Assembly: GCA_963748825.1 (NCBI GenBank)
Contig: CAVVKN010000018.1
Location: 32,001 to 96,000, forward strand
Length of the DNA stretch: 64,000 nucleotides
Direction of reading: 5' to 3'
DNA from: Methanotrichaceae archaeon
GTDB taxonomy: Archaea; Halobacteriota; Methanosarcinia; Methanotrichales; Methanotrichaceae
The notes under the pieces were generated by a model that saw nothing but the letters and a program-made list of their open reading frames with translations, was not told the DNA's origin and did no database searches. The position numbers and the translations under genes were made by a program. Of the stretch, positions 26,410 through 63,731 are shown piece by piece (position 1 is the first letter of the stretch; the number at the start of each line of letters is the position of its first letter).

Positions 26410-26598
26410 ATGAGCGGTTTATAACTTTACGAGACCAGTTAAATCATTAAAGAGTGGAGGTCAATAATGATGAGCGACGTTGGGAGCCAAGATCCCCTGC
26501 TATGGCAGCAGGGATAACTGATCATATTTGGACAATTGGCGAGATTATAATGATGTTAGTTGTTCCTGAAAGTAACAACGCATAATGGGGGGATTACC
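26410..26598 (+). mobile_element. IS1-family-like transposase 3' remnant with terminal IR
   Basis: Translates VYNFTRPVKSL, then after a frameshift RVEVNNDERRWEPRSPAMAAGITDHIWTIGEII, stop at 26585. Ends in GGGGGGATTACC (reverse complement GGTAAT), resembling an IS1-type terminus. Confidence 0.7.
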
Positions 26599-26612
26599 GG
26601 AGATTGGGAAAG

Positions 26613-26828
26613 ATGACTGAGTATCTGATTATCATTGAAAAGGCTGAAAATAATTATGCAGCATATTGCCCGGATTTGCCCGGCGTCATTGCCACCGGCC
26701 CAACGAAAAAAGAAACGCTGGAACTGATGAAAGAGGCAATAGAATTCCACCTGGAAGGGTTGAAGGCCGAGCACCTCAGCATCCCTGAGCCTACTACCAC
26801 TGCTGCTTCAGTGGATGTAAGTGTGTAA
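26613..26828 (+). CDS. hicB: HicB-family antitoxin, orphan
   Basis: YLIIIEK..NNYAAYCPDLPGVIATG.T..E....MKEAIEFHLEGL......IPEP. Confidence 0.88.
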   Translation: MTEYLIIIEKAENNYAAYCPDLPGVIATGPTKKETLELMKEAIEFHLEGLKAEHLSIPEPTTTAASVDVSV

Positions 26829-26853
26829 ACGCTGGATCTTATTTTTACGGTCT

Positions 26854-27168
26854 CAGCGCCGGGCAGCCGCAGGGCCGTGGTTGCTGCCGTTGCCGCTGGT
26901 CCCGGCTGCGTTCGTGCCGCCGCCTGTGGGCCGGGCCGTCCGGGACTGCGGCGCTATCGTTAGGGCGGGCAGGAGCCCGGTTGGGCCTGAGAGCCAGGTG
27001 GCGCTGAACTCCGGCGGAGGTAATTTTCAGGATGCTGGGTTTTAGGAAACTGTGGTGATTTGCGATTACTATTAGATGATAATTATAGCCGAACAATTAC
27101 GAATATAACCGCAGAGGCGCAGAGCACGCGGAGGACGAACGAACGGAGACGACTATTGCTCAGGAGCA
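26854..27168 (+). repeat. GC-rich structured intergenic repeat, copy A (near-identical to 30140-30455)
   Basis: CAGCGCCGGGCAGCCGCAGGGCCGTGGTTGCTGCCG ... GGTTTTAGGAAAC ... GATAATTATA ... AACCGCAGAGGCGCAGAGCACGCGGAGGACGAACGAACGGAGACGACTATTGCTCAGGAGCA. Confidence 0.92.
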
Positions 27169-27220
27169 TACAAATATTAAGCAGTAGCAATAACCTTTGC
27201 AGAAGGAAGCGGTGGTTTGA

Positions 27221-27445
27221 TTGCTTGTGAAGTTTGAGGTTTACTTTGATGGAGAGAACTGGTGCGCTCGTGGAATAAGTGTCGGTATATTCACACAAGG
27301 AAAAACCCTTGATGAGCTAACTGAAAATATAAAAGAGGCAACTAGTCTGCATTTTGAAGATATTCTTGAATCTGGTGAAGAGCTGAAGATCTTATCGATT
27401 TCTGAATTTGAGGTGCAGCCTCTTGCAAAAGCGTCCGGTTGTTAG
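27221..27445 (+). CDS. hicB: HicB-like antitoxin
   Basis: WCARG...IFTQGKTLDELTENIKEATSLHF; overlaps the hicA gene. Confidence 0.8.
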   Translation: MLVKFEVYFDGENWCARGISVGIFTQGKTLDELTENIKEATSLHFEDILESGEELKILSISEFEVQPLAKASGC

Positions 27446-27671
27446 CGGCGAGAAGCTCCTCAAAGTGCTCGTTCGACTGGGCTATGAAATCATTCGGCAG
27501 AGAGGAAGTCACGTCAGGCTGAGAAAGCTAACTGCCGCAGGAGATCATAATATCACGGTTCCTTTGCACGACGAGCTGGCGAAGGGTACATTAAACGACA
27601 CTTTATCTCAGGTATCCATCTGGAATGGGATTTCGGAGGATGCCTTGATAGAAATGATTAGGCAATCATAA
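27423..27671 (+). CDS. hicA: HicA-family mRNA interferase toxin
   Basis: SGEKLLKVLVRLGYEIIRQRGSHVRL...ITVPLHDELAKGTL; probable TTG start. Confidence 0.9.
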   Translation: MQKRPVVSGEKLLKVLVRLGYEIIRQRGSHVRLRKLTAAGDHNITVPLHDELAKGTLNDTLSQVSIWNGISEDALIEMIRQS

Positions 27672-27698
27672 ACCAAACGACCAAAGAAGAAATCTAAT

Positions 27699-27895
27699 TG
27701 CAGTCTCCAGCTTAGCGATTTTTGCGGGCTACCGGCAGCAGCACCGGGCAGCCGCAGGGTCGTGGTTGCTGCCGGCGCTCGGTTCCCGGCTGCCGCTCGT
27801 GGCCGTCGCATGTGGTCCGGGCTTGCTGCGCTATCGTCCTGGCGAGCTGGCTTGCCAACCATGCACTCGTGCAAGGGGGCAGGAGGCCGGTTGGG
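27699..27895 (+). repeat. GC-rich structured repeat, copy B (5' part)
   Basis: TGCAGTCTCCAGCTTAGCGATTTTTGCGGGCTACCGGCAGCAGCACCGGGCAGCCGCAGGGTCGTGGTTGCTGCCGG matches 30100-30175. Confidence 0.88.
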
Positions 27896-27982
27896 AATGA
27901 CGCCTTTCGATGCAATTTGTCTTTTAGTTAACTTTTAATAGCAAGCTGTACATAAATTAACGGAAATCGAATAGTAATTACT

Positions 27983-28252
27983 ATGGGGTTAATCATGTCG
28001 GTAGAGGTTTCTGTAAACTCGGCCAAAAAGAATCTCGAAGATATTCTAGCGAAGCTATCTCCTGGTGAGACAGCTACTCTGATCGGCCCTGAGGGCAGAC
28101 CCATGGCCGTACTGGTTCCACTAAGATCTTCTGAGGATGTGGCAGCGGAAATTGACTGGGATGCAGAGTGGCAGGCCTTGGCCCATGAAATCGATTCAGC
28201 ATGGAAGAGCGAGAAGAGTGCTTTGGAGATTCTTGCCGAGATGAGGAGATGA
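27983..28252 (+). CDS. Phd/YefM-like antitoxin
   Basis: VSVNSAKKNLEDILAKL..GETATLI...GRPMAVLVP; ATGA-coupled to the PIN gene. Confidence 0.75.
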   Translation: MGLIMSVEVSVNSAKKNLEDILAKLSPGETATLIGPEGRPMAVLVPLRSSEDVAAEIDWDAEWQALAHEIDSAWKSEKSALEILAEMRR

Positions 28253-28692
28253 ACCTGACAATTGATGCCAGCGTCTTTGTCTCTGCAGTCCGACCTTCTG
28301 AAAAACAATATCCTCTGAGCTACGGGTTTCTGCATAGGGTGAAAGGATCAAAAATATTCTGCCCCACTTTTATGCTTGCTGAGTGTGGAGCAGCTATTGC
28401 CAGGCCGACCGGAGACTCGCTTTTGTCCGGGAGGCTGGTTAACCTCATAAAGCATTTTCCTGGGATGACACAGGTTCCTTTGGATCTGCCTCTCGCTCTT
28501 CGTGCGACAGAGATTGCCATTGAAAATCGTCTTCGTGGCGCGGATGCCGTTTATGTTGCTGTTGCTGAGGATTTTGATGCCGTTTTGGTTTCATGAGATG
28601 AAGAAATGTTAGAGCGCTGTCCCGAATCAGTGCTAGCGATGAGCCCTGAAAAATGGCTGGAAAACACCTCAAGAACTGGCGGGCGGGAATAA
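28249..28692 (+). pseudogene. vapC: VapC/PIN toxin interrupted by an in-frame TGA at 28594-28596
   Basis: LTIDASVFV...LAE...LRGADAVYVAVA....AVLVS*DEEMLER; the frame continues to TAA at 28692. Confidence 0.82.
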
Positions 28693-28707
28693 GATCATTT
28701 CAGGTAG

Positions 28708-28975
28708 AATCTCCGACTAAGCAATACTTGTCGATTACCGGCAGCAGCGCCGGGCAGCCGCAGGGCCGTGGTTGCTGCCGGCGCTCGGCTCCCGGCTGCG
28801 TTCCTGGCCGCCTGTGGGCCGGGTCGTCCGGGCTTGCGGCGCTGTTGTCAGGGCGGGCTGGCTTACCAGGCAAGCGATCTTGTCCGGGGCAGTGGGAAGG
28901 ACGGGCCTGGTTTCTGGTGGCGCTTATGTTCGGATAGGGAGACTTTTCGGGCGCCGACTAAGAGAGTTAGGAAAC
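28708..28975 (+). repeat. GC-rich structured repeat, copy C (diverged 3' part)
   Basis: TACCGGCAGCAGCGCCGGGCAGCCGCAGGGCCGTGGTTGCTGCCGGCGCTCGGCTCCCGGCTGCG ... ends GTTAGGAAAC. Confidence 0.88.
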
Positions 28976-29003
28976 CAGAAATCGCTAAAAGAACGAATCT
29001 GAA

Positions 29004-29525
29004 TTATTTAAATAAATCTATATCAACTGGCAGACCTACTCTCATGAAAAATCTTGCAAAAGCCTGAGACAAATGCTCTCTATAAGGAGGCAACAGCCTT
29101 AGTCTCTTGCCATTACGTTTGGACAATTCAATCAGGAAATCCAAAGGAACGCCGTAGACGTTCCTGAAATCCACCACTTGAAAATCTGTTTCAAATCCTT
29201 CTAATTCGCATCTGTTTAAGAGATGGTATCCAGAAAGGTTTCCCTGGCGCAGCGATTCTTTGCCTTTCCGGCTCTTGAAGAAATCGTTTTCGGATCCCAT
29301 TTCACTGATTGGCCAAATGGGACTTACCAGGACGTTATCCAGCTTGTGATGAGCAAGATCGCAGGACTGGCTCATAACAATCACATCATATTCGATTATC
29401 TCTGCTGAAATTCTTCCTTCCCCAATTGATGAAGATGGAACGATGACCGGACATGAAGTCATAAAATCGCCCTGCATGAGAGTTTCGTCTGCATCAGCGA
29501 TATCGTACCAGGGATAGTCTCTCAT
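29004..29525 (-). CDS. Hypothetical protein with QGD / SQSCDL / FARFFMRVG motifs; possible toxin
   Basis: 173-aa ORF in TA context, downstream of a small gene; function not recognised. Confidence 0.7.
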   Translation of the reverse strand: MRDYPWYDIADADETLMQGDFMTSCPVIVPSSSIGEGRISAEIIEYDVIVMSQSCDLAHHKLDNVLVSPIWPISEMGSENDFFKSRKGKESLRQGNLSGYHLLNRCELEGFETDFQVVDFRNVYGVPLDFLIELSKRNGKRLRLLPPYREHLSQAFARFFMRVGLPVDIDLFK

Positions 29526-29542
29526 GAAACCAAAAACATTGG

Positions 29543-29833
29543 CTAGATAGCCTCGGGCAATACAATCTTTGGTTTTGCCTTGGTGATATCTCTTACATCG
29601 ATCTCTACAAAATATCTTTTTTTGGGCGGCATGCGAACTACTACGTCATATTCTATTGAATCTTCAAGATTGGTTTTATTAGCAAATGCTTCCTTTGAAT
29701 CAACCTTCTCTTTGGTCGCCGATTGTGGATATGGTTTGGATTGGCTGACAGACATGAGTGTCCTCTCTATTAATTGCATGTTGCTTCTTAGAATATATCC
29801 CTTTGCCAGGAATATAATTTTTATGTTCTTCAT
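29543..29833 (-). CDS. Small hypothetical protein, possible partner of 29004-29525 (start may be 29755)
   Basis: ORF 17 bp upstream of its partner; AGAGAGGA RBS-like sequence before the ATG at 29755. Confidence 0.55.
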   Translation of the reverse strand: MKNIKIIFLAKGYILRSNMQLIERTLMSVSQSKPYPQSATKEKVDSKEAFANKTNLEDSIEYDVVVRMPPKKRYFVEIDVRDITKAKPKIVLPEAI

Positions 29834-29853
29834 CTAGTGACAGGTAGTAGCAA

Positions 29854-30078
29854 GGCCAGGCGGGCCCGCATGCACGCGTGCAGGCTCGCGCTCGGGGGCA
29901 GGGGGCCGGTCGGGCCTGAGGGCCTGGTGTGCTTGCTTCCGGTGGGGGGAGTTTTTCCTGGCGCTGGATTTCGGGAAACAATGTCGTCAGTTTGCGATTA
30001 ATATTAGCTGATAATTATAAACAGACAACTAACGGTCCCACCACAGAGGCACAGAGCGCACAGAGGACTCACAGAGAC
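29854..30078 (+). repeat. GC-rich structured repeat, diverged 3'-half copy
   Basis: GGGGCCGGTCGGGCCTGAG...GGGAAAC...TTTGCGATTAATATTAGCTGATAATTATA...ACCACAGAGGCACAGAGCGCACAGAGG aligns by eye with 26970-27135. Confidence 0.8.
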
Positions 30079-30099
30079 ATTTTTGGCAGAGAGATACGA

Positions 30100-30455
30100 T
30101 GCAGTCTCCATCTTTGCGATCCTTGCGCGCTACCGGCAGCAGCGCCGGGCAGCCGCGGACCGTGGTTGCTGCCGATGCTCGTGGTCCCGGCTGCGCTCTT
30201 GGCCGCCTGCCCGTGGTCCGGGCCGTCCGGGACTGCGGCGCAATCGTCAGGGCAGGCAGGAGCCCGGTCGGGCCTGAGAGCCAGGTGGCGCTGGACTCCG
30301 GCGGAGGCAATTTTCAGGATGCTGGGTTTTAGGAAACTGTGGTGATTCGCGGTTACTATTAGATGATAATTATAGCCGAACAATTACGAATATAACCGCA
30401 GAGGCGCAGAGCACGCGGAGGACGAACGAACGGAGACGACTATTGCTCAGGAGCA
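30100..30455 (+). repeat. GC-rich structured repeat, copy D (most complete)
   Basis: Contains all modules; 30140-30455 is near-identical to 26854-27168. Confidence 0.92.
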
Positions 30456-30471
30456 GTGCACTTTTCTGAAT

Positions 30472-30575
30472 GTGGTTGCTGCCGGCGCTCGGGTCCCGGC
30501 TGCGTTCGTGCCGCCGCCTGTGGGCCGGGCCGTCCGGGCTTGCTGCGCTTATTGTCAGGGCGGGCTGGCTTGCAC
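30472..30575 (+). repeat. GC-rich structured repeat, copy E (internal fragment)
   Basis: GTGGTTGCTGCCGGCGCTCGGGTCCCGGCTGCGTTCGTGCCGCCGCCTGTGGGCCGGGCCGTCCGGG matches copies A and C. Confidence 0.88.
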
Positions 30576-30884
30576 GCTCGGGCACCCACGCGCGCGGGGA
30601 GACTGCCACCGATGGCCGCTCGGCGGGCGTGGGCTGTACATAGGGCGGGGCAGCTAGAAGAACGCCAGGCTTGGCGTCGTCAGCTAATCTGGATATGCTT
30701 ACCAGCTACAAGCGAGCTCTATCGTTCATGAGGCAATAGTGCTCCGAAGAATTGAGACCGGCGAGTATTGTGGATTACGATTCATCATAGATAATTGGGT
30801 CATTCTCCTTTATATCTCATTGCTTCAAAAATATCCTAACTATATGAAAATTGGATATAATTATAAACATATTATGAATTATTT

Positions 30885-32411
30885 TTATCTTCTTTTCTTT
30901 AAATAGGCTAATATTCCTGGTATCTCCTCTAAATCTTCCGCCCAAATCGTATTTAAACCTAATTCTTGGTAAGACTTTTCTTGCAGCTCCTCATTCACAT
31001 TTGTAAATGAATAAAAAACATTTCCCCTCACGTTGTTTGGATTATGTTCAAATATTGTTCTAGGCAATATGACAAAATGCCTAGGATATTCGCTATTAGA
31101 CGCGGATATAGCAAGAAGTCTACGGAGGTTGGGATCATTTAGGGATAATCCGACCATAACACATGTTGATTCACGTAGAAAATTAAGTTGAATAATATTC
31201 TGCCAAGAATATGGATTCAATAGAAGTGAATGATATCCTTCTTCTGAAAATACTAAAAGACTCTGCGATAATTTTTCATCATCTTCTATTTCATATGGTA
31301 GGAATCCGTGCACGTGATAAATGCCCAATTCGTCCTGTGAAGGGATGTCTGGCTCCCTGTAGATGGAAACGCAATCTATTCCTTTTTCAGTTAGAACCTT
31401 TTCGAATACATCATCGAAATTGTATGTAACAACAGCCCTTACACCACCTCTATTGCTTCTCCTAGGCAAACATAATTGAGATAGGACCTCTAAGGATTCA
31501 GGCCAATGGTCATTAGGTTTTTTGAAATTTTTATACAAAATTTTCGATATTATTTTGATAAAATCCTTTCCAAGACCTGTCCTAATGTATCTTGCCTGAA
31601 GCAGAGGAGATGTATCATTCTCCGTTTTTAATTTTTTTAATATAGCACCTCGTTCCGAATTGTCAACAACTATTGATTTTTCAGCGAGCTTTTCGCTTAT
31701 CATCTCTACAAGCAAGTTTGAAATCAATGTGTCCCAGAGTGGAATTCCAACATCATTGGATATCCCTGAACCCAAAAATAACACAACGCCTTTATCTTTA
31801 TATAATTCGGTTAAACGATTGATATTTTCCTTCTTTTTTTCAATTCTCTCTTCAGAAGTTCGTTCCAAGCTTTTAGTGATTGTATCATTTAAGGCCAATT
31901 CAGATAATTCTTTCAATGAATTTATCGTCTCGAATGAATTGGCTTTCATAATATGCAATAGATCTTCTAAGTCCCATAATTTTAACTTTATATTACTTTT
32001 TTCGAAATAATTTTTAACATTTTCTTTAAATTGATCGCTTAATTTATCTCCAAATATTAAAAATAGATTTTCGAATGAAAGTTTGTTTCCATCTTTATTT
32101 TTATCAAATTTAGGTAATCTATGCAATATTGCATGAAAGTAATTAAATGTGTTTTTTATGTTTCCAGGTGATGCACTATATTTTATTTCAATTATGACAG
32201 GGCCCAGCAATTCATCGATTCCTTCCGGTGCATAAGCATCAGTTTCAAATTTTTTCCCGATTTCTGTTTTATAAGAGTAATATGGAATAAATGGCTTTGA
32301 TTTCTTTCTGAAATATTCTTCAAGTAATTTCAATACAAACGTTTCAAAAAGCATGTAGGAACGGGGGCCACCACTTTTGTCTAAATTATTTTTAAACTCA
32401 TTTAAATCCAT
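30885..32411 (-). CDS. SIR2-like (SIR2_2) domain protein with N-terminal PD-(D/E)xK REase-like domain; putative defence protein
   Basis: N-terminal FETFV...ETDAY...IIEIKY; SIR2 motifs VLFLGSGIS..GIPLW, VVTYNFDD, IYHVHG, VGLSLNDPNL; strongly AT-rich. Confidence 0.82.
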   Translation of the reverse strand: MDLNEFKNNLDKSGGPRSYMLFETFVLKLLEEYFRKKSKPFIPYYSYKTEIGKKFETDAYAPEGIDELLGPVIIEIKYSASPGNIKNTFNYFHAILHRLPKFDKNKDGNKLSFENLFLIFGDKLSDQFKENVKNYFEKSNIKLKLWDLEDLLHIMKANSFETINSLKELSELALNDTITKSLERTSEERIEKKKENINRLTELYKDKGVVLFLGSGISNDVGIPLWDTLISNLLVEMISEKLAEKSIVVDNSERGAILKKLKTENDTSPLLQARYIRTGLGKDFIKIISKILYKNFKKPNDHWPESLEVLSQLCLPRRSNRGGVRAVVTYNFDDVFEKVLTEKGIDCVSIYREPDIPSQDELGIYHVHGFLPYEIEDDEKLSQSLLVFSEEGYHSLLLNPYSWQNIIQLNFLRESTCVMVGLSLNDPNLRRLLAISASNSEYPRHFVILPRTIFEHNPNNVRGNVFYSFTNVNEELQEKSYQELGLNTIWAEDLEEIPGILAYLKKRR

Positions 32412-32516
32412 ATTTTAGCCTGCCTTATGCACGGGATGGTACGAAATCATCTCGCTTTGTAACGTTCCTGGGAAAATTGATAAATGTGTTGCTCATCTTG
32501 AGCCTTGGGTGATGAC

Positions 32517-32740
32517 ATGGATGCCAGAGATTACAATCGCCACTAAGAGATATATTTCCGAGACACCGAAACTTTAACCAAGTTCATCTTTGAGACGGTC
32601 TCTACAAAAAGAGATGCTAATAACTGGGTGGTCATCTGCCTGGTCCAGGACTTATTGAAGATAGAGGCAAGAAGTTCAGGCAAATCGTGAATGGCCAAGG
32701 TGGAATCCTGGAAGTCGAAATGCTCAACAAGAGTCCCATT
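32517..32740 (+). pseudogene. Frameshifted paralog of the 33199-33426 gene
   Basis: Translates MDARD...TKFIFETVSTKRDANNWVVICLVQDL / EDRGKKFRQIVNGQGGILEVE, versus MNAKD...IKFIFETVSVKREGDKWTVICMVQDLFEDEGKKFKIIVDNEGEVLDVE. Confidence 0.8.
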
Positions 32741-32856
32741 GAATCATTGCAGGCAGAGCATCATTGGGTCAGACTTCCGTCTCTTTCCTGAGAGTCGGAG
32801 CTGCTCAGATTTAAGCAAGCAAAACCTTATTCCTGGCCCTCCGGTCAAGATCAAGC

Positions 32857-33128
32857 TCATCCAATTGAGTTAGCCCGCTGGGGCTTGAACGCGATCTCCC
32901 CCGCCGCCAGGGGCTTTGCCAGCAGCCGTCCCGCAAAGAATTCCTTCATGATCACATCGATCTCTCTTGATACCTCCTGCGTGTATTCGACCTCGCCGTA
33001 GGTATCGCAGATGAGAGCCGGAACATCCTTAATGACCACGATCTCATTTCCAACCTAGCCATAAAATCATGTCTGCCTTCACGCATCTTGCCTGAGCAAC
33101 GGCAGCAATCATGGGCATCCGAATTCAT
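32857..33128 (-). pseudogene. YgiT/MqsA-type zinc-finger protein, frameshifted
   Basis: MNSDAHDCCRCSGKMREG.. in one frame and VVIKDVPALICDTYGEVEY in another; second CxxC reads CDTY. Confidence 0.75.
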
Positions 33129-33198
33129 CTGCCCCCCTCTTTCTGGGGAAAATTTAAAAAGGTATGGCTCATAATTAAACCAAATTTGAGGCGAGATC

Positions 33199-33426
33199 GT
33201 GAATGCTAAAGATGCTGGAATAGCGGCCAAGAAGTATTTTGAAGAGACCAAGTCACTTATAAAATTCATCTTTGAAACCGTTTCTGTTAAAAGGGAAGGA
33301 GATAAGTGGACAGTCATTTGCATGGTTCAAGATCTATTTGAAGATGAAGGCAAAAAGTTCAAAATAATCGTCGATAACGAGGGAGAAGTTCTGGATGTTG
33401 AAAAAATTGATCAAATTCCCTGCTAA
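33199..33426 (+). CDS. Small hypothetical protein, putative antitoxin or partner of the downstream PIN gene
   Basis: 75-aa ORF, GAGG RBS, overlaps the PIN gene; has a decayed paralog at 32517. Confidence 0.7.
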   Translation: MNAKDAGIAAKKYFEETKSLIKFIFETVSVKREGDKWTVICMVQDLFEDEGKKFKIIVDNEGEVLDVEKIDQIPC

Positions 33427-33913
33427 AGTAATAATCGATACCGGACCACTTCTATTGTTTCTCGCAGGAAATTATGATCCTGAATACATCCCTAAAATAA
33501 AAAGAATAAAATATGGAGGCGAGCCCTGCAATAAGATACATTATGATATCCTAATGCAGTATCTGAACCATACAAAGGAGCGATTGATTACCCCTGGGAT
33601 TCTTTCAGAGGCATGGAACCTTATAGATAATGATATTAGTAATAAAAAAGATAAAAAGGAATTATTTGATGCGAATATAAATTATTTTAAACTTATGAAT
33701 GAAATCTATGTACCCAAAAATGAAATTCTATCGGATAAATACTTAAGTTCGAATGCATGGAAATTCGGCTTTACGGATTCATCGATTATTTTATGTGCAA
33801 AAAATAATAGCGCTTGCGTATTAACACAGGATTTTCCATTATTCAATATTTGCAAAAATTTAAAAATAGATACAAATCATTTAAGCTCAATTCTCAGCTT
33901 GGCAGATCTATAA
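33395..33913 (+). CDS. PIN-domain protein (VapC-like)
   Basis: VIIDTGPLL...ITPGILSEA...FGFTDSSII...VLTQDFPL. Confidence 0.8.
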   Translation: MLKKLIKFPAKVIIDTGPLLLFLAGNYDPEYIPKIKRIKYGGEPCNKIHYDILMQYLNHTKERLITPGILSEAWNLIDNDISNKKDKKELFDANINYFKLMNEIYVPKNEILSDKYLSSNAWKFGFTDSSIILCAKNNSACVLTQDFPLFNICKNLKIDTNHLSSILSLADL

Positions 33914-33993
33914 AAAATGTATCAATTAATATAAATCACTGGCTTTCCCGGCTCATCCGCCGTGCAGCATCTTTCCCAGCCTATTTGAACCGC

Positions 33994-34036
33994 CGTCTCC
34001 GTGTTCGTTCTCTGTGCGCTCTGCGCCTCTGCGGTT
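33994..34036 (-). repeat. Inverted copy of the repeat's terminal AACCGCAGAGGCGCAGAG motif
   Basis: Reverse complement AACCGCAGAGGCGCAGAGCGCACAGAGAACGAACACGGAGACG matches 27107-27151 and 30394-30438. Confidence 0.88.
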
Positions 34037-34091
34037 AAATTCCGTTAGCCCCAGGTTTAGCACCCAGAGCCAACGGTCTTCAGCCATCCTT

Positions 34092-36945
34092 TCACTCAAT
34101 ATAAATCGCCGGCCTCCCCGGTTCCGCTTGCTTGCTCTTGCCCTTGGGGTCCTCCCCCGCCTCGTCCGCCGAGTAGATCTCCACCGGCACACCCAGCGCC
34201 GTCTGCAGGTATGCCTTCTCTCTGGAGAGCGTCTCGAACTCGTCCAGCCCCAGCGCCTCAGCCGAGAGCGAGTGCGCCGCCTTGGCCAACTTTTGGGCAT
34301 ACTTGGGCGCATCCTTCTTGTGCTCCGAAATAGACGGGCGTTGCCATGGCCTGCTTCATGAGCGCTCCCATGTCCAGCTTGCCGCCTGAGGCCGCCTCAA
34401 CAGCGAGCCGCAGCATCTCCTTCTTCCAGGCAGGAGCAGTGTAGAGCGTGATCTTCGTAGGCGTGGCTTTGGTAACGCTCACAATCTCCTGCACGTCCTT
34501 GAGCGTCCGCTCCAGCAGGTCCTCCGCCTTCTCCGCCTGCGGATCGATGAGCGCCGCATCCGCCACCGGCCACTGGGCCAGCGAGGCGTAGCCCTCGCCC
34601 AGGCCCGCCGCCCACAGCTCCTCGCAGACGTGCGGCGTGAAGGGCGACATCATGCGCACCCAGGCGCTGAGCACAGCCCGCAGCTGATTCTTGCCACCCC
34701 TTCTCTGGTACCAGCGCAGATCATTGAAGAGCAGGTAAAAGGCGTTCTGCAGCGCCCTTCGGGTTTGGATGTTTTCCAAGGCCTGCGTGGCCTCAGCAAT
34801 GCGCCGCTGCAGCCGGGAGAGCATCCAGCGGTCGATGAGCGTCTTCTCTGCCGACTCATCGATGCTGCTGTCGGCCAGAATCTCCCTTGCCAGATTGTAA
34901 AACCTCTCCAGGTGAGCATAGGTGGCCTCTACCGCATCATTTCTCCAGTCCACGTCCGCCGTTCCCTCGGCATTGCCCAGGATGTAGAGGCGCGTCACGT
35001 CCGCCCCGTTTTCAGCTACCGCCTGGCGCAAAGTGAGAATCGGCCCCTTGGACTTGGACATCTTCTTGCCCTCCAGGGAGACGAAGCCGTTGACTGCGAT
35101 AGCTTTTGGCCAGAGCCGCTCCGGGAATATGGCCACGTGATGGTAGAGGAAGAAGAGCAGGTGGTTAGCGACCAGATCCTTTCCTGAGGTTCGCAGGTCT
35201 ACCGGATACCAGTAGGCGAAGTCGTCGTGTATCTTCTGCACGGTCTCCTGGGGCACTCCCGTGAGAGCGGCCACGCTGGCGGCGTCGCCGTTGTTCATGA
35301 AGATGTACTCGAAGAACTCAGGCGGCAGCTGGTCAATCTTCATCCCGGCGTTCACATACTTGGCCAGGATGTAGTAGGCCATGTAGATCGTGGAATCCCC
35401 AAGCGATTCAATGAGCCACTCTTTGTCCCAGGGAAGATGAGTGCCGAGTCCCTTACGCCTCGCACAGGCCTTGTCCTTGAGCCAGTCCACCTTGTTTATG
35501 AACTCCACCCGAAACTCCTCGGGTATAATCTTCATGCCTGCCAGGCAGCGCAGCACATTAGCCTTCCACTCCACATCGGAGTACTCCAGGAACCACTGGT
35601 CTCGAACCAACATAATGACGCAGCGCGTGCCGCAGCGGCAGATTACCGGCGTCTCGGAAAACTCATAGAAGATCTCAGCTATGCCCTGCTCGATCAGATC
35701 GGCCAGGAGAACGTCCTTGATCTTGCTGACGGCTATGCCCGCATACTTTCCCGTGTTGGCCTTGAGAACGCCGTTGTGAAACTCGCGCCGGTAGACCATC
35801 TTGGTGGCATCTTCTGCCTTGGGGTCGTTCTGGTCCTTAACCTTCAGCTCGTTTACGGCTTCCACCGCGGGCATTTCACCGTAGCCGGGCGACTCAATCA
35901 AGGAGATGAACTTGATATTTCTCAGATCCTCGGTGATGCCAAACTCGGAGAGGTCTTTGCCGTACAGATCCTTGAGCGCCAGATAATCGTAAGGCGCATG
36001 AGCCGGAACGGACATGACGATTCCCGAGCCGTTGTCCGGGTCCACGAATCCGGCAGGCAGCACGAGAACTTCGGTGCCGGTGAGGGGGTTAGTGACCCTC
36101 TTGCCGATCAGCTCCTTTCCCGAGATCTCCCCGGACAAAGCTACGGTCCGGTCCGTGAAGGTTAATTTCTCATAGGCCTCTTTGGATACCACCCAGGTTT
36201 CATCGTTCACTTTGGCCAGGACGTAATTGACATCCGGGTTGAGCCAGAGGTTGACCACTCCAAAGACCGTCTCCGGGCGCAGTGTGGCGCAGGGCAGGAC
36301 TCTGTCTCCCATTCTGAACTTGATCAGGGCAAAGTCCATGATGGTGGCATCCTCGCCTTTGAGAATGTCGTGATCCTCCACCGGATTTCGATCATGCGGG
36401 CACCAGCGCACCGGATGGCTGCCCTTGACCACATAATCCAGGCGGCGCAAAATGCCGTACTGCCACTCGATGAACTTGCTGTAAGCCGGATCGGTGGTGG
36501 TAAACTCCCGCCTCCAGTCGATGGAGTAGCCGATAGACTGCATGGCCGCTTTCGCCTGGCGGCGGAAGTAGAGCACAATCTTCTCCGGCGTGTTTAGCTC
36601 AGAGAGCTCCTCCTCAGGAATGCCGTGCAGCTTGGTGTAAACATCCCAGATCAATGGGTCGCGTTTGGCAATGAGCTCGGAGAGGCCCACTATCGGCGTT
36701 CCCGTGGCGTGGAAAGCCATGGGGAAGAGAACATTCTTTCCCTGCATGCGCATGAAGCGCGCCACTGCATCGCCAATGGTGAAGGTGCGCGTATGCCCGG
36801 CATGCAAATTTCCATTGAGATAAGGATAAGGTATGGTTAAAAAGAACTTCTGGCGATCGTCCGGCTCGGGCTGGAAGACCGTTTTATCCTCCCAGGTCTT
36901 CTGCCACTTGGCCTCGATCTCCTTAGCAGAATAATTTTCCAGCAA
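34092..36945 (-). CDS. leuS: Leucyl-tRNA synthetase (archaeal type), with a +1 frameshift near 34337
   Basis: PYPYLNGNLHAGH (HIGH-like), ATLRPET, KMSKSKG. The C-terminus (...EPGRPAIYIE, 34092-34335) lies in another frame. Confidence 0.95.
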
Positions 36946-63239: not shown

Positions 63240-63731
63240 ATGCTAGATACTATCCTTCCCGGAAGCAAAATCTTTATTGATTCAAATATAATGATCTATC
63301 ATTTTCTTGATCTTTCAGAGAGCTGTTCAATTCTCCTCGAACGAGTCGAGCACGGTGAGGTTCAAGCTTATATTTCCACAGTTGTGCAGGCTGAGGTCTT
63401 GCATAGATTGATGATATCAGAAGCGGTGGATAAATTCGGGATCAAACCCAACCAGGCGGTAAGATATCTGAAGGAGCATCCTCGTGCCATTGCATCCTTG
63501 GATAAGTGCGAGATTGCCTTAGCAGATATCCTTGAGTTCAATATCGAGGTCATATGCATGGGAAGAGAAGCAATAATCAAGAGCCAGAATTTTAGAGAAT
63601 GCTACGGTTTAATGACCAATGACTCCTTGAACTTTTATGCGATGAAGAAAGAAGGGCTCAGAATAATTGCCACCAATGACAGAGATTTCGAGCGTATTGA
63701 TGGGATCGAGGTCTGGAGACCAAATGTTTGA
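63240..63731 (+). CDS. vapC: VapC/PIN toxin
   Basis: IFIDSNI, ISTVVQAEVLH, YGLMTNDSL, IATNDRDFERI. Confidence 0.88.
   Translation: MLDTILPGSKIFIDSNIMIYHFLDLSESCSILLERVEHGEVQAYISTVVQAEVLHRLMISEAVDKFGIKPNQAVRYLKEHPRAIASLDKCEIALADILEFNIEVICMGREAIIKSQNFRECYGLMTNDSLNFYAMKKEGLRIIATNDRDFERIDGIEVWRPNV

Follow-up and report, generated by a model that had tools for sequence, protein, structure and literature searches.

How does a row of short toxin-antitoxin (TA) and defence genes, separated by copies of one long repeat, come to lie beside leuS, and by what means do its contents change? The locus that raises this question is part of a 64,000-nucleotide stretch of contig CAVVKN010000018.1 from a Methanotrichaceae archaeon, hereafter the window, the positions of which serve as coordinates throughout. 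The genome under study is designated G000 and the window contig C18, with other G-numbers for the genomes of relatives. Between a cluster of extracellular contractile injection system (eCIS) genes (6-26338) and the 3′ end of leuS, a cassette array spans positions 26,604-34,042 and consists, in order, of a HicB gene, a HicBA pair, a Phd-PIN pair, a gene pair with no assigned family, and a SIR2 gene with gene remnants. Genes in the window were assigned with Pfam, and PADLOC and NCBIfam were also run, while the relatives are mostly fragmented metagenome-assembled genomes (MAGs) in which genes were called by picking the longest open reading frames (ORFs). Pfam assignment and repeat mapping bore out the gene order, with interleaved repeats, that a first-pass annotation had read from the DNA, as well as its alternation of AT-rich cargo (GC content 0.22-0.52) with very GC-rich spacers (0.67-0.725). 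We propose, with a probability of about one half, that the array is an old tandem-repeat scaffold into which TA modules were inserted, and that its repeats supply the homology for the gain, loss and reshuffling of cassettes.

The cargo in the window is separated by six plus-strand copies of one composite repeat of ~380 bp, labeled A to F (Table 1). A repeat profile built on the full copy E (379 positions) recovered the six copies in nhmmer with E-values from 1e-18 to 1e-114, and they are therefore not chance matches. The mapping agrees with the first-pass description of six co-oriented copies that differ in completeness, two of them near-identical over ~315 bp: copies A and E share 93.7% identity over 317 nt and 96% over 247 nt. 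The parts of the repeat are, in order, a leader (model positions 1-73), a GC-rich core (~74-191, or ~120 bp, into which a palindrome of ~36 nt may be inserted), two T-runs, an AT-rich TATA-like box ('TATTAG..GATAATTATA'), and a 'CAGAG' arm, which is a run of 'CCGCAGAGGCGCAGAG...' repeats. The T-runs and the AT-rich box are the best-conserved columns among 33 long copies, with copies ~70-85% alike overall and near-invariant blocks of only ~20 nt. Copy B is truncated where the next cargo starts, and copies D, E, and F abut one another.

Copies that contain the core are found almost entirely beside TA genes. In the genome, 18 of the 74 profile matches include the core and these occupy five places, with six on C18, seven on C25, three on C21, one on C10, and one weak match on C22. 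All but one of the 18 sit in four loci that adjoin HicAB, PIN, MNT-HepT or RelE genes. The locus on C25 reads HicBA / MNT-HepT / x-PIN / x-RelE/YafQ / HicB / MNT fragment, that on C21 comprises HicBA, an ORF with an acylphosphatase domain, and HicB, and the copy on C10 lies ~300 nt from a UPF0150-type HicB gene. The gene that flanks this solitary C10 copy encodes a TATA-binding protein, which has several paralogues per genome. Adjacent paired TA families include HicB-HicA and Phd-like-PIN in the window and HicBA, MNT-HepT, x-PIN, and x-RelE/YafQ on C25; by family assignment, the cargo is made up of type II TA modules, the toxicity of which is predicted. Genome-wide there are 17 matches to HicA, 13 to PIN, and 18 to UPF0150, and 11 of these 48 fall within 1.5 kb of a core, a zone that makes up ~0.9% of the genome. 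By hand calculation, this is a roughly 25-fold enrichment. Tallied against the genome, the core is thus enriched beside TA genes and not scattered, in keeping with the TA association noticed at first pass. The association runs one way only, with 37 of the 48 TA matches away from the repeat. One example of the TA genes outside the arrays, which are the majority in this genome, is a PIN-domain gene at 63240-63731 (E 6e-12) with no core repeat anywhere near it. The same interleaving of repeats with TA modules is seen in eight arrays of relatives, where 33 of 134 ORFs belong to TA-type families (PIN, DUF3368, UPF0175, HicA, HicB/UPF0150, MNT, HepT, DUF4258, MqsA-like, and DUF2281).

The repeat is lineage-specific. 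Among 58 further genomes of the genus, 33 have its leader and core (236 nt) at E-values up to 1e-8. A first sample of 16 genomes from other genera gave no match to the full unit, and neither did 300 further genomes of the phylum, a set that took in three other genera of the same family (8 genomes) and for which two candidates were scored per genome. Distant members of the genus with complete genomes, such as G005 and G052, gave no core match, and all of the full-unit matches listed for G005 lie in the tail. Plasmid and phage collections gave no match to the repeat unit. One IMG/VR contig was matched by a 19-nt core pattern, with an empty nhmmer table, and we took this to be a chance match in a long ORF.

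Where the array is present, its place beside leuS is fixed. The 3′ flank of leuS was fetched from 20 relatives, and 11 of the flanks contain core copies. Another two, both very short contigs, have only the tail motif; five long ones of 12.8-16.4 kb (G005, G021, G023, G043, and G065) have no copy; and the remaining two pieces are a 445-bp stub and a gap-filler. With the window, G012, G017, and G020 added to the 11 flanks, there are 15 species with an array, and in 15 of 15 the array is on the same side of leuS with its repeats in the same orientation. The far side of the array varies, with eCIS genes in the window and FeoB in G020. Eleven of the 20 fetched flanks are shorter than requested because their contig ends, in most cases within ~1-11 kb. 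In seven cases (G058, G074, G051, G050, G011, G024, and G063; loci L026, L028-L031, L034, and L039) the contig ends 0.4-10.6 kb past leuS, and several of these ends fall within a repeat copy or shortly beyond one. The arrays are probably a cause of breaks in short-read assemblies.

Although the position of the array is constant, the order of its cassettes at leuS is not invariant across relatives. In the window hicBA comes before Phd-PIN and in G061 after it, and HicB comes before hicBA in the window and after it in G016. The Phd-PIN block is 98.3% identical to that of G061 over 701 nt, compared with 88% identity between the leuS genes of the two and 89.5% between their leuS-proximal flanks. 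Because of this difference, the block points to one recent interspecies exchange of a unit that would comprise the Phd-PIN cargo and the leader. In a sliding-window comparison with G061, the tract of high identity extends from ~27,905 to 28,760, its limits being the left edge of the cargo and, in copy C, the boundary between leader and core. Wherever there is sequence downstream (five contexts), cassette-level identity of the PIN cassette is lost at model position ~65-74. The conserved hicBA block, which is ~90% identical in G061, G016, G010, and G011, begins at ~27163 with a sharp left edge after 'GGAGCA', while its right edge varies with the partner genome from ~27,700 to 27,805, as expected for homologous crossovers. 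Other cassettes recur at lower identity: the orphan HicB of the window shares 81% identity with the HicB from a HicA-HicB pair of G017 (L022 7699-7946), and the block with the family-less gene pair is kept at 83-87% in the leuS arrays of G051, G061, G067, G068, and G069. In one contig of environmental DNA, HicB (26853) runs directly into copy C (28840), with the hicBA and PIN cassettes skipped, and back-joints in environmental contigs fit strain variants, duplications or circles alike. Relative to the repeats, the orientation of the cargo is characteristic of its cassette family: Phd-PIN shares the strand of the repeats in six of six contexts, and MNT-HepT and PIN136 are opposite to them in three of three contexts each. 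The HicB, HicBA, and Phd-PIN genes of the window are co-stranded with the repeats, and cargo opposite to the repeats occurs on C25 and C21 and, in relatives, as UPF0150-type HicBA, MNT-HepT, and PIN136.

The junctions of the repeat suggest how such an array could have been built. From 211 repeat matches we obtained 73 junctions at which two copies abut, and 54 of these join a tail (324-359) to a leader (1-28), while 11 join position 378/379 to 71-76. Both kinds occur in the window, where D-E is a tail-to-leader junction and E-F a 379-to-74 junction, and runs of units free of cargo are found there (D-E-F) and in G015 (C81). The recurrence of tail-to-leader junctions indicates that the ground state is a head-to-tail array of ~350-bp units. 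Cargo interrupts the units at model positions 141-296 on its left (78 junctions) and 40-180 on its right (68 junctions), and these positions are the same for members of one cassette family and differ from family to family. Since the cargo sits inside units, each piece of cargo is flanked by direct repeats of the core. The scattered, family-specific junctions fit a single arbitrary insertion per family, after which the cassette spread along with the repeat DNA around it, and they do not fit a fixed crossover of the integron type.

Under the scaffold model that we favor, the starting point would have been an old, position-fixed, lineage-specific head-to-tail repeat array, of which the window would hold one end. 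Small selfish or defensive modules (HicAB, Phd/PIN, MNT/HepT, RelE, UPF0175/DUF3368, DUF4258, and family-less pairs) would each have landed once, at an arbitrary point inside a unit, and each insertion would have left its cargo bracketed by direct core repeats that serve as shared homology. General recombination of the RadA type between cores, whether within an array, between arrays or with DNA acquired from related species, could then delete, duplicate, reorder, and import cassettes, with an integron-like outcome reached without an integrase or attC. Homologous recombination would be the engine of reshuffling. Several observations weigh against this model. Copies that are only ~70-85% alike are a poor substrate for homologous recombination, and the 379-to-74 junction and the end of the PIN tract coincide near position 70, which could mark a defined crossover site. 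The genome, in 25 contigs, is 95% complete, and a recombinase gene outside the array could have escaped notice. No excision product or circle was seen in the environmental contigs, which come from mixed populations. Frequent intragenomic conversion is not evident either: when core copies were labeled by genome, 42 label changes were counted on a poorly resolved tree, compared with 45.9 ± 1.5 after shuffling (5 of 500 shuffles as low); the copies thus cluster little by genome, and any concerted evolution among them is weak at best.

The same junctions bear on whether the array is instead a site-specific cassette system, an archaeal integron analogue built from different parts, with the core as its site, a crossover near model position 70-74, and a recombinase encoded elsewhere. 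Such a system would account for exact junctions that recur (the 11 of 73 from 378/379 to 71-76 as well as the 54 of 73 from tail to leader), for the drop in PIN identity at ~65-74 in all five contexts, for near-invariant blocks in the core across species, and for an orientation relative to leuS kept in 15 of 15 species. We nevertheless consider it unlikely, as the cargo junctions cover a range of more than 100 model positions and vary with the family, the right edges of hicBA are variable, and duplication of single old events may account for the recurrent junctions. No fitting machinery came to light near the arrays either. Scans of 49 window ORFs (16 + 33) found no integrase or transposase family, which upholds the first-pass observation that the window has no recombinase, and the 134 ORFs in the eight arrays of relatives include no tyrosine or serine recombinase, integrase or resolvase family. 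The co-occurring tyrosine recombinase or HUH/RAYT (REP-associated tyrosine transposase; REP, repetitive extragenic palindrome) transposase that the first-pass annotation had thought worth seeking did not emerge: genome-wide, Phage_integrase gave two partial matches only, on C20 and C5, and Y1_Tnp a single pseudogene fragment with five stops on C12.

A site of the integron type would also be expected to fold, and the repeat had been called structured at first pass, a description that folding and covariation tests did not support. Folding of copy E gave z-scores of only −1.25 and −1.87 relative to shuffled sequences, and folds of single copies on both strands did not support structure. RNAalifold predicted no pairs for either 33 long copies or 57 core copies. 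In a helix scan, the two best helices had 88.7% of cells paired, compared with 88.4% in column shuffles, and the covariation score was equalled or exceeded in 194 of 500 shuffles. Neither RNAalifold nor helix covariation revealed a conserved attC-like hairpin, the attC model of IntegronFinder not being applied, and no R′/R″ boxes of attC were seen by eye, in agreement with the earlier remark that canonical attC boxes are not evident. The integron-analogous capture platform suggested at first pass thus stands as a cassette array, with TA loci, reshuffling, and exchange, but without a nearby integrase, an attC-like conserved hairpin, a fixed crossover or co-oriented cargo. A stronger version, in which part of the genus would own an integron-equivalent capture platform that uses the ~120-bp core as its site with a preferred leader/core crossover, is served by an unrecognised recombinase or by specialised general recombination, and has units that bring their own promoter or terminator, seems to us rather doubtful.

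The tail of the repeat behaves differently from the core. Of the 74 profile matches in the genome, 56 are to the tail only, on 16 contigs, and a profile of the tail alone gives 80 matches. The element often consists of two divergent arms around a TATA-like center, and across the genome its usual place is 10-250 nt upstream of ORFs in either direction (e.g., C12:99250-99550, C10:97740-97990, and C1:20880-21200). By eye, some of the downstream ORFs resemble Cas1, Cas2, and Cas4. This dispersed 'CAGAG' element could be a mobile promoter-like element. The inverted terminal motif described at first pass is indeed an inverted copy of the tail, at the 3′ end of leuS (Table 1), but it is a solitary instance of the dispersed element and not a special terminus of the array; the element is at the same place in G016, G051, G050, G011, G067, and G059.

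The dispersal and the frequent divergent pairing of the tail raise the possibility that the whole repeat is a non-autonomous mobile element, such as a miniature inverted-repeat transposable element (MITE), a short interspersed nuclear element (SINE) or an element like the palindrome-associated transposable elements (PATEs), mobilised for example by IS200/IS605, which favors its own copies and TA genes and yields cassettes as a by-product. IS200/IS605 genes do edge three of the relatives' arrays, with fragments of TnpB in L016 and L017 and Y1_Tnp in L019. However, the genes at the sides of arrays belong to differing insertion sequence (IS) families (IS605, IS21, and DDE_Tnp_1) and are not conserved; transposase families account for six ORFs in the relatives' arrays (two TnpB, IS21 IstA and IstB, DDE_Tnp_1, and Y1_Tnp). 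The IS21-type IstA/IstB pair is inside the array of G012:C1 (L018 10045-12249), and the arrays seem to tolerate IS insertions. Reading of the junctions, with no formal search for target-site duplications, showed no fixed ends, terminal inverted repeats or target duplications for the GC-rich core. With 17 of 18 core copies in four TA loci, only one weak match is solitary away from TA genes. The sole Y1 match is the five-stop pseudogene, the plasmid and phage collections hold no copy, and the viral-contig pattern match had an empty nhmmer table. The REP- or MITE-like element that the first-pass annotation gave as its second option is accordingly not a description that fits the core, and we regard a mobile-element nature of the repeat as very improbable.

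The position of the tail relative to ORFs is also relevant to gene expression. As judged from the letters of the repeat, the AT-rich box may be an archaeal promoter and the T-runs may be terminators, so that the AT-rich tail could supply promoter or terminator signals. Extending this idea, the unit might be an expression module or a non-coding RNA gene, with a TATA-like promoter, a 'CAGAG' 5′ leader, a GC-rich transcript, and T-run terminators, that has been amplified in tandem and regulates or insulates TA operons, mobility being incidental. Conservation is highest in the T-runs and AT-rich box of the 33 long copies, the tail element stands 10-250 nt upstream of ORFs throughout the genome, and the tail of copy A is ~50 nt upstream of hicB, all of which would suit such a module. 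So would metatranscriptome contigs from three studies that cover hicBA and Phd-PIN, one of which extends into the repeat core. These contigs indicate presence only: the read evidence consists of contigs, which cannot give the start, end, strand or level of a transcript, RNA libraries can contain DNA, and a lack of RNA cover over parts of the locus does not indicate that they are silent. Moreover, RNA structure has neither thermodynamic nor covariation support, the promoter is proposed from sequence only, and the module leaves both the reshuffling and the 98% identical cassette unexplained. Nor does the repeat belong to a known RNA family. Rfam 15 gave no match at gathering scores in the whole window, and with E-values up to 5 there were four chance-level matches (E 1 to 3.4) in 26500-34200. 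We find the expression module hard to accept as the main explanation. A coding origin of the repeat was considered and rejected, with 12 of 12 repeat-spanning ORFs lacking a Pfam match at E-values up to 0.1. The copies differ by single-base insertions and deletions, and the ATG in the leader is not conserved. Because its spanning ORFs are family-less and its copies differ by such small insertions and deletions, the repeat looks non-coding, and it appears to be conserved as sequence and not as structure.

Table 1. Genes, repeat copies, and tail element of the leuS cassette array, in window coordinates.
Feature	Position	Strand	Assignment
Orphan hicB (antitoxin-type) cassette	26604..26828	+	Pfam HicB_lk_antitox, E 1.5e-9
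Repeat copy A	26849..27170	+	model 50-371 (core, T-runs, TATA-like box, CAGAG arm); nhmmer E 1.2e-92
hicB of hicB-hicA cassette	27221..27445	+	Pfam HicB_lk, E 5.7e-6
hicA of hicB-hicA cassette	27408..27671	+	Pfam HicA_toxin, E 1.3e-13
Repeat copy B	27687..27899	+	model 4-190 (leader + core); nhmmer E 3.2e-39
phd-like antitoxin	27983..28252	+	Pfam PhdYeFM, E 4e-4 (weak, below cut-off)
PIN toxin of Phd-PIN cassette	28201..28596	+	Pfam PIN, E 1.3e-7
Repeat copy C	28703..28978	+	model 13-254; nhmmer E 1.9e-45
Two-gene cassette, 173 aa + 96 aa	29004..29525 and 29543..29833	-	no family
Repeat copy D	29885..30084	+	model 155-357; nhmmer
Repeat copy E	30086..30465	+	model 1-379, full unit; nhmmer
Repeat copy F	30468..30583	+	model 74-187; nhmmer
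Defence-type SIR2 protein, 508 aa	30885..32411	-	Pfam SIR2_2, E 7.6e-17
Gene remnants and 75-aa/172-aa pair	32427..33913		no Pfam, PADLOC or NCBIfam match
Solitary inverted tail element at leuS 3′ end	33988..34042	-	nhmmer model 302-358; inverted repeats I1-I3
leuS	34258..36945	-	

Codon 132 of the PIN toxin (28594-28596) is TGA, where G061, G012, and G069 have TGG (Trp), and this stop removes 31 of 163 residues, which suggests that the toxin of this cassette may be decaying. The 173-aa and 96-aa proteins of the two-gene cassette had no match in Pfam, PADLOC or NCBIfam. The 508-aa SIR2 protein is matched by the ThsA, Dsr1, and LmuA SIR2 models of PADLOC and by ThsA/Dsr1-type SIR2 entries of NCBIfam, and a possible 'REase' domain at its N terminus was recognised by eye only. 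In G020, a 1123-aa SIR2-nSTAND3 protein (L020 4134-7505; C1 ~588.1-591.5 kb) is encoded between the array and leuS, so that different SIR2 defence genes fill one slot in the two genomes. The stretch from 32427 to 33913 beside leuS is also conserved in G020 and G005. The putative pseudogenes between the SIR2 gene and leuS were likewise identified by eye only; those at 32857-33323 and 32543-32698, both on the minus strand, resemble to the eye a frameshifted zinc-finger antitoxin of the MqsA/YgiT type and two short related remnants, with no match in Pfam, PADLOC or NCBIfam. Intact DUF4258 and MqsA-like pairs are present in the arrays of relatives. For the 172-aa ORF (33395-33913), which has no Pfam match, a language model alone gave a PIN lead (cluster 44% PIN, score 0.95).

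At the far edge of the array, a 43-aa ORF (26454-26585) without a Pfam match has a C-terminal motif that we take to be of the kind found at the C termini of transposases. The eCIS cluster that abuts this end looks complete, with sheath, gp19 tube, T4 baseplate, Pvc16_N, AAA ATPase, three eCIS_core, base_V, gp25, two Baseplate_J, and DUF6519 components. It is probably accessory too, because G020 has FeoB on the equivalent side. The window contains no tRNA gene that could serve as an integration target.

Among known systems, sedentary chromosomal integrons and clusters of attC sites lacking integron-integrases (CALINs) are among the closest. In the parts of the archaeal integron survey drawn on here, TA proteins make up 10.5% of annotated archaeal cassette proteins, and its Data S1 has a single Methanotrichaceae entry, a MAG from a different GTDB genus that carries 2 attC sites and 0 IntI (Ghaly et al, 2022; PMC9668308). 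Like integrons and CALINs, the leuS array has short cassettes separated by a repeated element of ~120 bp, and these cassettes are rich in TA and defence genes, differ in order between relatives, and move between species. Unlike them, it has no IntI nearby (although IntI is optional for CALINs), its repeat lacks the conserved imperfect hairpin of attC sites, which are imperfect inverted repeats of 57-141 bp arranged R″-L″...L′-R′, its cargo is joined at no single fixed point and in both orientations, and its unit carries a TATA-like tail. The unit, at ~350-380 bp and with only a pseudogene for a Y1 match, is also unlike the REP and bacterial interspersed mosaic elements (BIMEs) that accompany RAYT genes, which have palindromic units of 20-40 bp and a Y1 gene. 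It differs from a MITE in that the core has no defined ends and no solitary dispersed copies, given that 17 of 18 are in four TA loci. The array is more like a tandem-repeat, macrosatellite-like scaffold, with head-to-tail units and one junction that recurs in 54 of 73 cases.

An analogy for exchange through shared repeats is offered by Neisseria, where intergenic repeats or flanks in dRS3/RS arrays and minimal mobile elements are thought to provide homology for cassette exchange after DNA uptake, without a dedicated recombinase. Compared with the leuS array, these elements are bacterial, have much shorter units, are not specialised for TA genes, and have no TATA-like module. The pdif modules of Acinetobacter plasmids are small, include many TA pairs, and are bounded by repeated sites in varied contexts and orders; the sites are 28-bp Xer sites of alternating inverted orientation that are cut by XerC/D. 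The leuS array has long, direct repeats instead, in which no dif-like site was identified, although no search for dif or Xer sites was made. ANME-1 archaea, which belong to the same phylum as the archaeon studied here, offer another parallel. Their variable hotspots, as described in the sections of Zhou et al (2026; PMC13385816) considered here, contain several hicAB operons, with hicAB, hicBA, and orphan hic genes co-located as in the leuS array and strain variation arising by insertions and deletions, and TA and defence genes are linked there to diversification. Unlike the leuS array, the hotspots are not described in those sections as having a repeated spacer, an array scaffold or an anchoring gene. 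The portion of the literature on TA genes, repeats, and MITEs of Methanosaeta/Methanothrix that was consulted includes no description of the leuS-array repeat.

In outcome, then, the array resembles an integron, with none of the integron's parts shown. Methanothrix-type archaea rank among the principal producers of methane from acetate in wetlands, sediments, and digesters. A position-fixed array through which species swap TA and defence cassettes suggests that these archaea, slow to grow and genetically intractable, may exchange accessory genes in the absence of recognisable integrases. As many leuS flanks stop at contig ends, short-read MAGs may under-report the pool of cassette genes available to them. 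The leuS array therefore offers a testable model for whether shared repeats alone can give integron-like gene capture.

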